Source: a virus
Reading direction: 5' to 3' (one strand)
Length of the DNA stretch: 18,470 bases
Virus genome (UHGV): UHGV-1652597
Shown in pieces: positions 1-3,780 of the stretch. The position numbers and the translations under genes are program-made. Each line of letters opens with the position of its first letter. The first letter of the stretch is position 1. The notes under the pieces were generated by a model, which had not been told where the DNA came from, searched no databases, and worked only from the letters and a program-made list of their open reading frames with translations.

Positions 1-67
1 CGTGTCATAAGGCGAAGACGGCCCGTGAACGGTTTAAGTGATAATAATTCTCAACTGTCTGAGGGGA

Positions 68-127
68 GGGGCGGGTCAAATCTCTGCGGCCTGACGTCTT
101 CCGGACTGCCCGCCCCATCGTTTTTTT
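68..127 (+). terminator. Terminator-like inverted repeat (GGGGCGGG ... CCCGCCCC) followed by a T7 run, upstream of terS; alternatively part of the packaging (cos) region
   Basis: Perfect 8-bp inverted repeat at 68-75 and 109-116 separated by about 33 nt, then ATCG and seven Ts at 121-127. The loop is long for a canonical intrinsic terminator, hence low confidence. Confidence 0.3.
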
Positions 128-166
128 ATACCCGCGAAAAATGAAATTTAACCAGGAGTGCCGCAT

Positions 167-661
167 ATGGCTGGAACGGCGGGGCGTTCCGGGCGTCGCC
201 CCAAGCCAACGGCGCGCAAGGCGCTGGCCGGAAACCCCGGCAAGCGAGCCCTGAACAAAGATGAACCTGTTTTTACGCCCATCAAAGGTGTTGAGCCACC
301 GGAGTGGTTCGCTGAAGAAGATCTCCCTCTCGCCACGATCATGTGGCAACTGACAACCAAAGAACTCTGCGGTCAGGGCCTGTTGTGCGTGACTGACCTG
401 GCGGTACTTGAGCGGTGGTGCGTGGCCTATGAGTTCTGGCGACGTGCCGTGAAAAATATTGCCAGCCAGGGCAACACCATCACCGGTGCAATGGGCGGTA
501 TGGTCAAAAACCCGGAGCTGACCGCCAAAAAAGAACAGGAGTCCGAGATGAGCAGCACGGGGGCAATGCTCGGACTCGACCCCAGCAGCCGCCAGCGTCT
601 GATTGGCCTGGCGGGGCAGAAGAAAGCCACTAACCCGTTTCTGAAAATCATCGAATCATGA
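167..661 (+). CDS. terS: Phage terminase small subunit, P27 family
   Basis: Track ORF 158..661; N-terminus [33 protein letters not shown] is typical of P27-family small terminases. AGGAG at 154-158 sits 8 nt before ATG 167, so ATG 167 is preferred over GTG 158. Position is immediately upstream of the large terminase. Confidence 0.8.
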
Positions 662-698
662 GCCGGAAATCTTACCCCAACGTAAATGCTGCCAATTT

Positions 699-2345
699 GT
701 GATGCAGGCCTGCCAGCGCCATCTTGATGACCTGATGGCGGAAAAAAGTAAGTCGTTTCGTTACCGCTTCGACAAGGACCTGGCTGAACGGGCCGCCAAA
801 TTTATTCAGCTGTTGCCGCACACCAAGGGTGAGTGGGCATTCAAGAGGATGCCCATCACGCTGGAGCCGTGGCAGCTCTTTGTGATCTGCTGCGCGTTTG
901 GCTGGGTCAATAAAGGCTCCCGGCTGCGCCGCTTCCGTGAGGTGTATACCGAAATCCCCCGTAAGAACGGCAAATCGGCAATCTCTGCCGGTGTCGCCCT
1001 GTATTGTTTTGCCTGTGATAACGAGTTTGGCGCGGAAGTGTATTCCGGTGCCACGACAGAGAAACAGGCGTGGGAAGTCTTTCGCCCGGCGCGACTGATG
1101 TGTAAACGCACACCCATGCTGACGGAAGCGTTCGGGATTGAGGTTAACGCCTCAAACATGAACCGTCCGGAGGATGGCGCGCGGTTTGAACCGCTGATCG
1201 GTAACCCCGGTGATGGATCATCACCCCACTGTGCGGTGGTGGATGAATATCACGAGCACGCCACCGATGCGCTTTACACCACGATGCTTACCGGGATGGG
1301 GGCGCGACGTCAGCCACTGATGTGGGCCATTACTACTGCCGGGTACAACATTGAGGGGCCGTGCTACGACAAGCGGCGGGAAGTCATCGAGATGCTCAAC
1401 GGCTCGGTGCCCAACGATGAACTGTTCGGGATCATCTATACCGTTGATGAAGGTGACGACTGGACCGACCCGCAGGTGCTGGAAAAAGCCAATCCAAATA
1501 TTGGCGTGTCGGTTTATCGCGAATTTTTGTTAAGTCAGCAGCAGCGTGCGAAAAATAACGCCCGTCTGGCAAACGTCTTTAAAACAAAACACCTCAATAT
1601 CTGGGTGTCGGCGCGTTCGGCGTATTTCAACCTGGTGAGCTGGCAGAGCTGCGAGGATAAATCACTGACCCTTGAGCAGTTTGAGGGGCAGCCGTGCATT
1701 CTGGCCTTTGACCTGGCGCGTAAGCTGGATATGAACAGTATGGCGCGACTTTATACCCGCGAGATTGACGGTAAAACGCATTACTACAGTGTGGCTCCGC
1801 GCTTCTGGGTACCGTATGACACGGTGTACAGCGTCGAGAAAAATGAAGATCGCCGGACAGCCGAGCGCTTTCAGAAATGGGTGGAAATGGGCGTTCTGAC
1901 CGTTACCGATGGTGCGGAGGTGGATTATCGCTACATCCTCGAGGAGGCCAAAGCGGCGAACAAAATCAGCCCGGTCAGTGAGTCACCCATCGACCCCTTC
2001 GGGGCGACCGGGCTGTCGCATGACCTTGCGGATGAAGACCTGAACCCCATCACCATCATTCAGAACTACACCAACATGTCCGACCCGATGAAAGAGCTGG
2101 AAGCGGCAATTGAATCGGGGCGTTTTCATCATGACGGCAATCCCATCATGACCTGGTGTATCGGCAACGTGGTCGGCAAAACCATTCCGGGTAACGATGA
2201 TGTGGTGAAGCCCGTCAAGGAGCAGGCGGAAAACAAAATTGATGGTGCAGTTGCGCTGATTATGGCGGTTGGCAGAGCCATGCTGTACGAGAAAGAAGAC
2301 ACGCTGTCTGATCACATTGAGTCCTACGGGATCCGCTCGCTTTAA
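699..2345 (+). CDS. terL: Phage terminase large subunit (ATPase/nuclease)
   Basis: 548-aa ORF directly after terS; Walker A-like motif PRKNGKS near residue 90; acidic motifs (VVDEYHEH) consistent with terminase ATPase; size and position. Start is GTG 699 or ATG 702; an in-frame stop at 642-644 precludes a longer N-terminus. Confidence 0.9.
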
Positions 2346-2356
2346 CTGAGGTAATT

Positions 2357-2539
2357 ATGATCATGCTGATTCTCGCGCCTCTGGTGGGCGTGCTGGGTGC
2401 GCTTTTGCTGGCGTATGGTGCCTGGCTGATTTATCCCCCGGCGGGGTTTGTTGTTGCCGGGGCGCTGTGCCTGTTCTGGTCGTGGCTGGTGGCGCGATAT
2501 CTCGACCGTACACAGCCGTCTGTCGGCGGAGGTAAATAG
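2357..2539 (+). CDS. Small hypothetical membrane protein (two predicted transmembrane helices)
   Basis: 60-aa ORF with two hydrophobic stretches ([23 protein letters not shown] and [16 protein letters not shown]); GAGG at 2348-2351 is 5 nt upstream of ATG 2357; stop overlaps the portal GTG start. No family recognised. Confidence 0.5.
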
Positions 2540-3780
2540 TGTTCTTTTCGGGATTATTTCAACGAAAAAGTGACGCACCGGTGACCACGCCAGCAGAGCT
2601 GGCGGATGCTATCGGGCTGTCATATGACACCTATACCGGAAAGCAGATCAGCAGCCAGCGGGCCATGCGACTGACGGCGGTTTTTTCCTGCGTCAGGGTG
2701 CTGGCGGAGTCGGTCGGGATGTTGCCCTGCAACCTGTATCACCTGAACGGCAGCCTGAAACAGAGAGCCACCGGCGAACGTCTGCATAAGCTGATCTCCA
2801 CGCATCCCAATGGCTATATGACGCCGCAGGAGTTCTGGGAGCTGGTGGTCACCTGTCTGTGCCTGCGGGGAAACTTTTACGCCTACAAAGTGAAAGCATT
2901 TGGCGAAGTGGCTGAACTGCTGCCCGTCGACCCAGGTTGTGTGGTACCGAAGCTTAACAGTAGCTGGGAACCGGTTTACCAGGTCACATTCCCGGACGGC
3001 TCCACGGATGTACTGAGCCAGGAAGATATCTGGCATGTGCGCACGCTGACGCTGGACGGTCTGGTGGGACTGAATCCCATCGCCTATGCCCGCGAGGCAA
3101 TATCGCTGGCAGCTGCGACCGAAGAGCACGGGGCCAGACTGTTCAGCAATGGTGCGGTGACGTCCGGTGTGTTGCGTACAGAGCAGACGCTGTCGGATCA
3201 GGCTTATGAGCGTCTGAAGAAAGATTTTGAGGAGCGTCACACCGGGCTTGGTAATGCTCACCGCCCGATGATCCTTGAGATGGGGCTGGACTGGAAGTCG
3301 ATGGCGCTGAACGCCGAGGACAGCCAGTTCCTGGAAACCCGCAAGTTTCAGCTTGAAGAAATCTGTCGTCTGTTCCGTGTGCCATTGCACATGGTGCAGA
3401 ACACCGATCGCGCCACCTTCAACAATATCGAAGAACTGGGGCTGGGATTTATCAACTATTCACTGGTGCCGTATCTGACCCGCATTGAGCAGCGGATCAA
3501 CACCGGACTGGTACGAAAAAGTAAGCAGGGCGTTTATTACGCCAAATTTAACGCCGGGGCGTTACTGCGCGGGGATATGAAGTCCCGTTTTGAAGCCTAC
3601 GCCACCGGGATTAACTGGGGAATTTACTCTCCCAATGACTGCCGCGACCTGGAAGATATGAATCCGCGTCCCGGTGGGGATGTCTATCTCACACCGATGA
3701 ACATGACCACGAAACCCTCCGATGGCAGTAAAGCCGGTAAGCAGAAGGATAACGCCAATGCAGACGAAACAACGTCTTGA
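2539..3780 (+). CDS. Phage portal protein, HK97 family
   Basis: 413 aa; N-terminal region RLTAVFSCVRVLAESVGMLPCNLY resembles the conserved HK97-family portal N-terminus; located between terminase and prohead protease. GTG start at 2539 overlaps the preceding stop. Confidence 0.9.
   Translation: MFFSGLFQRKSDAPVTTPAELADAIGLSYDTYTGKQISSQRAMRLTAVFSCVRVLAESVGMLPCNLYHLNGSLKQRATGERLHKLISTHPNGYMTPQEFWELVVTCLCLRGNFYAYKVKAFGEVAELLPVDPGCVVPKLNSSWEPVYQVTFPDGSTDVLSQEDIWHVRTLTLDGLVGLNPIAYAREAISLAAATEEHGARLFSNGAVTSGVLRTEQTLSDQAYERLKKDFEERHTGLGNAHRPMILEMGLDWKSMALNAEDSQFLETRKFQLEEICRLFRVPLHMVQNTDRATFNNIEELGLGFINYSLVPYLTRIEQRINTGLVRKSKQGVYYAKFNAGALLRGDMKSRFEAYATGINWGIYSPNDCRDLEDMNPRPGGDVYLTPMNMTTKPSDGSKAGKQKDNANADETTS

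Follow-up and report, generated by a model that had tools for sequence, protein, structure and literature searches.

The virus genome UHGV-1652597 carries, in the short interval before its small terminase gene, a G/C-rich inverted repeat followed by a run of T residues, and the question raised by this locus is whether such an arrangement serves to end transcripts or to end packaged genomes. The stretch of DNA analysed, referred to here as the window, is 18,470 nucleotides long and is read on one strand from 5′ to 3′, with position 1 as its first letter. The initial annotation had considered the locus to be either a packaging (cos) region or, equally, a transcription terminator. All of the features on which it drew are present on direct reading of the sequence: GGGGCGGG at 68-75 and CCCGCCCC at 109-116 are perfect reverse complements with 33 nt between the two arms, a GACGTC palindrome is found at 93-98, seven T residues occupy 121-127, AGGAG is located at 154-158 and the ATG of terS at 167. 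Positions 63-145 very probably represent the cos packaging site of an SfV/SfI-type prophage, a type that is very common in E. coli and Shigella, with an HK97-like, HNH-assisted terminase. This assignment is based on identity to a mapped cohesive end, on positional homology to the genome ends of HK97, phiP27 and EPP-1, on the gene context and on the pattern of conservation; that this particular copy of cos is active is something that we infer.

The first 41 nt of the window (1-41, plus strand) form the 3′ end of a gene for an HNH endonuclease, which is read in the frame ...CHKAKTARERFK up to a TGA stop at 39-41, and the remainder of which lies upstream of the window. The full homologous gene in Shigella phage SfI is annotated as an HNH endonuclease, matches Pfam PF01844 (E 2e-16) and is homologous to HK97 gp74 (E 3e-10), and an HNH endonuclease is also annotated under the match in Escherichia coli records. 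An HNH gene had been anticipated upstream, and its 3′ end is indeed there. Downstream, the ribosome-binding site AGGAG (154-158, plus strand), recognised from its sequence, ends 8 nt before the ATG of terS (167-661, plus strand). The product of terS is a P27-family small terminase, as had been proposed (PF05119, E 4e-21), in agreement with the SfV and SfI annotations. It is followed by terL (658-2345, plus strand), which encodes an HK97-like large terminase with TerL ATPase and nuclease domains (PF03354 and PF20441; HK97 TerL 6Z6D, E 4e-25). An HNH gene upstream and a terS gene downstream are found at 167 of 192 loci that contain the cos block.

In a megablast search of phage records, positions 1-696 are 98% identical to the Shigella flexneri phages SfV, SfIV, SfI and SfII, and match several Escherichia and Salmonella phages at 94-98% identity. 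Positions 107-116 read TGCCCGCCCC on the plus strand, which is identical to the 10-nt cohesive end of SfI. The termini of SfI virion DNA were sequenced directly with outward primers, and in comparison with the prophage the 10 nt 5′-TGCCCGCCCC-3′ were missing (PMC3636060). Its authors concluded that SfI packages its DNA by a cos mechanism with defined ends, and not by headful packaging (PMC3636060). The SfI sequence was linearised by convention, as the same authors state (PMC3636060); the record ends with ...CTGCCCGCCCC and restarts with GTCGTTTTTTT at window position 117. Among the four Shigella phages, the linear records open at window positions 100 (SfV), 100 (SfIV), 117 (SfI) and 42 (SfII). 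Since those of SfV, SfIV and SfII were opened elsewhere, record ends alone are not proof of physical ends. The 98%-identical SfI has its mapped cohesive end exactly at 107-116, and the proposal of a cos site upstream of terS has therefore held up. The element is one and the same as the cos published for SfI and SfV; as such it is already known and ordinary. Because 107-116 coincides with the gap mapped in SfI, the right arm of the inverted repeat (109-116) belongs to the cohesive end itself, the equivalent of cosN.

More distant phages place their ends at the same position. A misc_feature annotated as 'cos-site' in the GenBank record of phiP27 (10 nt, CGCCCGCCCC) aligns with window 107-116, and the present element is, as judged from this alignment, a close homologue of it. 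The record of Edwardsiella phage EPP-1 ends with ...TGCCCGCCTC, a homologous 10-mer, and starts at the equivalent of window position 117. When the right and left ends of HK97 are joined, they align without gaps to window 59-150, and the end of the HK97 record falls on window position 116. These comparisons fix the predicted genome ends of this prophage at the junction 116/117, and the class to which the site is assigned by homology is that of HK97-type, HNH-assisted 3′-cos sites.

To what extent the inverted repeat itself contributes to this site was assessed by statistics, folding and comparison of natural variants. The 18.5-kb window contains 32 perfect 8-mer inverted pairs with a loop of 3-60 nt, and a repeat search of the window returned 61 inverted pairs of at least 8 nt within 60 nt, the 68-75/109-116 pair among them. 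A perfect 8-mer inverted pair also arises in 6.9% of 5000 dinucleotide-preserving shuffles of the intergenic region 42-166. When folded as RNA, positions 55-135 reach -26.3 kcal/mol, which is no different from shuffled sequences (z = 0.06), and positions 60-125 folded as DNA give z = -0.76 against shuffles. The inverted repeat does not exceed chance expectation, and it is neither statistically nor evolutionarily special.

Natural variation supplies the evolutionary side of this statement. IMG/VR relatives found via TerS were only those of 99-100% identity, and were of no use for covariation. IMG/VR was therefore scanned with the pattern GTCAAATC-N(20-50)-ACCCGCGAAA, from which the arms were left out to avoid biasing them, and the hits were combined with phage records into an essentially gap-free alignment of 70 unique versions of the block. 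Pairing between GGGGCGGG and CCCGCCCC is intact in 34 of these 70 variants, and pairs are lost in the other 36. The left arm changes to GGGGGAGG, GGGGGTGG, GGGGGTAG, GGGGGTTG, AGGGCAGG or GGGGCGAG where the right arm is unaltered, and the right arm changes to CCCGCCTC, CCAGCCCC, CCGCTTCA, CCACCTTG or AGCCCTCA where the left arm is unaltered. Not one compensated change between the arms was found when the eight proposed pairs were checked across the 70 variants. Many variants still pair in silico in shifted registers, which is expected from composition alone, since one side is G-rich and the other C-rich. The initial annotation had described a structured inverted repeat, a description that agrees neither with the fold stability nor with the lack of compensatory changes. 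The absence of compensation, together with the presence in HK97 of the same boxes beside an overhang that does not pair, indicates that the hairpin is not a selected structure. The apparent hairpin is a by-product: the cohesive end and part of a G-rich box are separately conserved, and are complementary by chance.

An alternative view would assign a function of its own to the complementarity of the G-rich box with the C-rich cohesive end, either as a DNA hairpin or cruciform, or as inverted half-sites about four helical turns apart that are recognised by the terminase or the HNH protein. A distance of 41 bp separates the centres of the two arms, and the left arm, GGGGCGGGTC, is similar to the overhang's complement, GGGGCGGGCA. 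Most relatives keep both a G-run on the left side and a C-run that closes the overhang, many of them being able to pair in a shifted register. A G-run and a C-run are complementary by composition anyway, however, and covariation that preserves the register is absent from the 70 variants. Furthermore, HK97 (overhang CGCCGCCAAA) and distant members of the group (with CCGCTTCA, CCACCTTG or AGCCCTCA) have no such complementarity and yet keep both flanking boxes. We regard a functional role of the complementarity as very unlikely, and a cruciform or DNA hairpin was rejected as the main explanation because the DNA fold of 60-125 is no better than that of shuffled sequences and covariation is lacking.

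Less likely still is a Rho-independent terminator, formed by the inverted repeat and the T-run between the lysis/HNH genes and terS, which late-gene antitermination would have to overcome. The U-tract lies on the correct strand for rightward late transcription, and the minimum-free-energy RNA fold extends the eight G-C pairs by G66-C119 and A67-U118, so that U121-127 begins one base past the stem. This spacing is obtained only if the two extra pairs across a bulge are counted; from the perfect stem, the seven U residues begin 5 nt away. An intrinsic terminator has a short-loop, G+C-rich stem, whereas 33 nt separate the arms here, and the consensus terminator scan, which permits loops of 3-8 nt, makes no call on the hairpin that the initial annotation had put forward for such a check. 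Stability above background and pairing kept in relatives are likewise missing, given the shuffle-level fold of RNA 55-135 and the uncompensated arm changes that cost pairs in 36 of the 70 variants. Variants with arms that are unable to pair in this register retain the T-run, and its conservation is explained by its place in a conserved block at the left genome end. HK97 shows the same architecture without the repeat, and an Rfam search of window 1-700 returned no match at E <= 1. As the HNH protein, TerS and TerL act together, a strong terminator between their genes would also be counter-productive. Since three of the four defining features of an intrinsic terminator fail, we conclude that the element is not one; a terminator was rejected on the combined results of RNA folding against shuffles, the consensus scan, Rfam and covariation over the 70 variants. 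The equal weight once given to this possibility is therefore not justified. More generally, a G/C-rich inverted repeat with a T-run beside terS should not be annotated as a terminator without comparative support.

The polarity of the ends follows from the way in which the SfI termini were sequenced. Run-off synthesis stops at the 5′ ends of the template, and the result in SfI was a gap rather than an overlap, which implies recessed 5′ ends and therefore 3′ overhangs. The SfI paper is silent on polarity, and the predicted 3′ overhangs are derived from this gap and from the homology to HK97. Least likely of all is a cos of the lambda type, which would have 5′ overhangs, or headful packaging from a pac site. 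The SfIV paper loosely calls packaging 'lambda like', and the gene order cos, terS, terL is as in lambda; but run-off from both sides of SfI left a gap and not an overlap, the SfI authors found defined ends (PMC3636060), the terminase and HNH protein are HK97-like, the DNA aligns with the HK97 ends, and the 5′ overhangs, lack of an HNH partner and Nu1/gpA-type terminase of a lambda-type cos are not what is found here.

With the site read as an HK97-type cos, the conservation across the 70 variants becomes informative about its parts. It is concentrated in three blocks, at 63-85, 102-112 and 121-145. The first of these, GGGGAGGGGCGGGTCAAATCTCT at 63-85, comprises a G-rich stretch and TCAAATC, is nearly invariant (consensus GGGGAGGGG..GGTCAAATC.CT), and has the left arm of the inverted repeat (68-75) within it. 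Next comes a variable spacer (86-101), which holds the least conserved columns of the alignment and reads CTGGCTGTCC, CGCGCGCC or otherwise in relatives. The GACGTC palindrome at 93-98 is thus present as described, but it sits in this poorly conserved spacer and is replaced in many relatives. The second block, 102-112, has the consensus GGACYGCCCGC; it includes a conserved CGGAC directly 5′ of the cohesive end (102-106), of which GAC is common to HK97. The third block, at 121-145, corresponds to +5 to +29 from the left end, is the best conserved of all, and consists of the T-tract (121-127), ACCCGCG (130-136) and an A-tract (137-141).

The block as a whole behaves as a signal in DNA. TerS shares only 48% identity with its counterpart in phiP27 and 43% with the TerS of Pseudomonas phage PARCL1pr, and the terS genes of both are unmatched by blastn beyond window position 139. 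Positions 63-139, by comparison, share approximately 76-77% DNA identity with phiP27 and PARCL1pr, and in the Pseudomonas phage they are the sole part that matches. That the cos block matches at the DNA level in spite of diverged TerS proteins argues that it is a DNA-level signal. Block 121-145 is most likely a putative binding site for the small terminase, equivalent to cosB, to which the T-run would belong. In HK97, the minimal TerS site spans +15 to +29, within which a C:G pair at position 21 and an A/T tract are essential (PMC11331095); CTAACCCGATTTTTT at that site compares with ACCCGCGAAAAAT at +14 to +26 here. TerS has no detectable similarity to HK97 gp1 (BLASTP E 6.4), and gp1 has no Pfam match, PF05119 included. 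Searches of TerS against the PDB by phmmer and with a 9-sequence profile returned no relevant match, and a single-sequence AlphaFold model of TerS was of too low confidence (pLDDT 38.9) for a fold search. The transfer of the binding site from HK97 therefore relies on position and motif resemblance.

Box 63-85 is a putative accessory cos subsite, which would precede the first nick by 22-44 bp at the right genome end. It is also found in phiP27, PARCL1pr and HK97, at an equal distance from the genome end. The fixed distance is kept across HK97, SfV/phiP27, Pseudomonas, Paenalcaligenes and other genera despite unrelated or highly diverged TerS proteins, which would fit recognition by the conserved HNH-TerL pair and not by TerS, with a cosQ-like role in termination or a role in nicking. 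It is possible, though on balance doubtful, that the box constitutes a second and so far undescribed subsite of HK97-type cos sites. A literature search, the scope of which did not extend to the original HK97, SfV and phiP27 papers, did not find the box described as a subsite; a full-text search for the motif strings returned unrelated papers only, and two other papers citing phiP27 dealt with unrelated cos sites.

These elements can be combined into a proposed packaging mechanism. On concatemeric DNA, TerS and TerL together with the HNH endonuclease would nick the top strand at 116/117 and the bottom strand at 106/107, which would leave 10-nt single-stranded 3′ ends, with TGCCCGCCCC on the right end. 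The packaged chromosome would then begin at position 117, with terS starting 51 nt inside, and end at position 116. The small terminase would most likely bind the T-tract/ACCCGCG/A-tract block at 121-145. Box 63-85, on the end that is packaged last, would most likely serve as a second recognition element for the cut at the end of a packaging round; it may have a cosQ-like role or provide a docking site for HNH-TerL.

A separate observation concerns the terminase genes of this copy. Relative to SfV, SfI and all best E. coli matches, terL carries a 46-bp deletion between positions 695 and 696, flanked by CTGCCA microhomology. The deletion shifts the reading frame, so that translation from ATG 658 ends at TGA 700-702, and what remains of terL is read in a different frame, starting at GTG 699. 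None of the 5426 complete E. coli genomes has the deletion junction, and it is likewise missing from the fetched loci, 128 of them with the undeleted sequence. Because of this frameshift the present cos copy may no longer serve its own terminase, and, if the deletion is not an assembly error, this copy of the prophage is probably defective in packaging.

The module itself is widespread. A region comprising HNH, cos, terS, terL and portal (window 1-3000) is found in 1612 of 5426 complete E. coli genomes (approximately 30%), with identities of mostly 95-99%; plasmids account for 14 of the matching places. In RefSeq, the E. coli match also carries the annotation of a 'ymfR' gene, beside terminase and portal genes. 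Beyond this species, a scan of one genome per species (596 billion bases) with an 18-base gapped pattern yielded mostly chance matches, and these were then filtered for the G-rich box, which left at least 11 real cos blocks among the matches listed. True copies reside in prophages of Citrobacter, Mangrovibacter, Rouxiella, Atlantibacter, Pseudomonas zhanjiangensis and the betaproteobacterium Paenalcaligenes (L213, L223, L240, L242, L271 and L279). These copies from other genera differ in the 10-nt overhang but retain the flanking boxes. A further apparent copy, in an Anaerolineales MAG contig (L276), might be contamination.

Six or seven loci (L140, L126, L155, L194, L176, L208 and L111) have the cos block with neither HNH nor terS adjoining. 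At L140, the block is located at 2018-2082 on the minus strand, its overhang carries one substitution (TGCCAGCCCC), and genes for a D5-type primase, a ClpP-protease/capsid fusion and a DUF1441 protein are found just upstream; at L176, a PerC-like gene adjoins the block. These loci look like PICI-like phage satellites that borrow this cos, and box 63-85 is copied in them together with the cut site. Carriage of the cos of a helper phage is a known strategy of P4 and some SaPIs (bioRxiv 10.1101/2022.09.08.507074).

As a discovery the locus carries little weight, since the cos of this phage group has been known for years from experimental mapping, and its use lies in annotation. A DNA signature consisting of the G-rich box with TCAAATC, approximately 23 nt, GAC, the 10-nt end and then T-tract-ACCCGCG-A-tract can serve to recognise HK97-type cos sites and the satellites that borrow them.

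Compared with known systems, the site is closest to the cos of SfI, SfV, SfII and SfIV, which match it fully in the cohesive end TGCCCGCCCC and in both flanking boxes and share the order HNH-cos-terS-terL. The differences include a few bases of the variable spacer, with GCGGCC here against GTGACC in SfV and SfI, A at position 117 against G in the SfI record, and the terL deletion, which none of the four phages has. The Stx2e phage phiP27, the namesake of the P27 small-terminase family, shares the G-rich/TCAAATC box and the TTTTTACACCCGCGAAA block with the present site, and has an HNH-type ORF upstream and a P27-family TerS downstream, as here. Its overhang begins with C and not T, its spacer differs, and its terS has diverged beyond detection by blastn.

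HK97 is the more distant relative for which the biochemistry is known: it has 10-nt 3′ overhangs, and cos cleavage by its terminase is stimulated by the HNH protein gp74 (PMC11331095, PMC9410871). The latter paper gives the HK97 overhang as 10 nt in the legend of Figure 1, and as 12 nt, with 10 nt for lambda, in its discussion, which looks like a swap. HK97 and the present phage share a G-run followed by ATCAAATCT 33 nt before the end, with G-run plus (A/G)TCAAATCT at exactly this distance in both; they also share GAC just before the overhang, ACCCG with an A/T tract at about +14 to +30, and homologous HNH and TerL proteins. The ATG of terS is at +50 in HK97 and at +51 here. In contrast, the HK97 overhang CGCCGCCAAA forms no inverted repeat with the G-box, the distance from the end of the HNH gene to the G-box is approximately 320 bp in HK97 as against 22 bp here, and HK97 TerS has no detectable sequence similarity to the TerS of this phage and no PF05119 match. 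The cos flanks of HK97 and of SfV/phiP27 are thus homologous at the DNA level though their small terminases show no sequence similarity.

Finally, in the cos of lambda (cosQ-cosN-cosB) the nicking site lies between an upstream termination element and a downstream binding region for the small terminase, upstream of the small terminase gene. Lambda has 12-nt 5′ overhangs and needs no HNH protein. The arrangement proposed here, with a cohesive end between box 63-85 and block 121-145, would follow the same logic as lambda cos, including a possible counterpart of cosQ (cited as reference 38 in PMC11331095), with no sequence in common.
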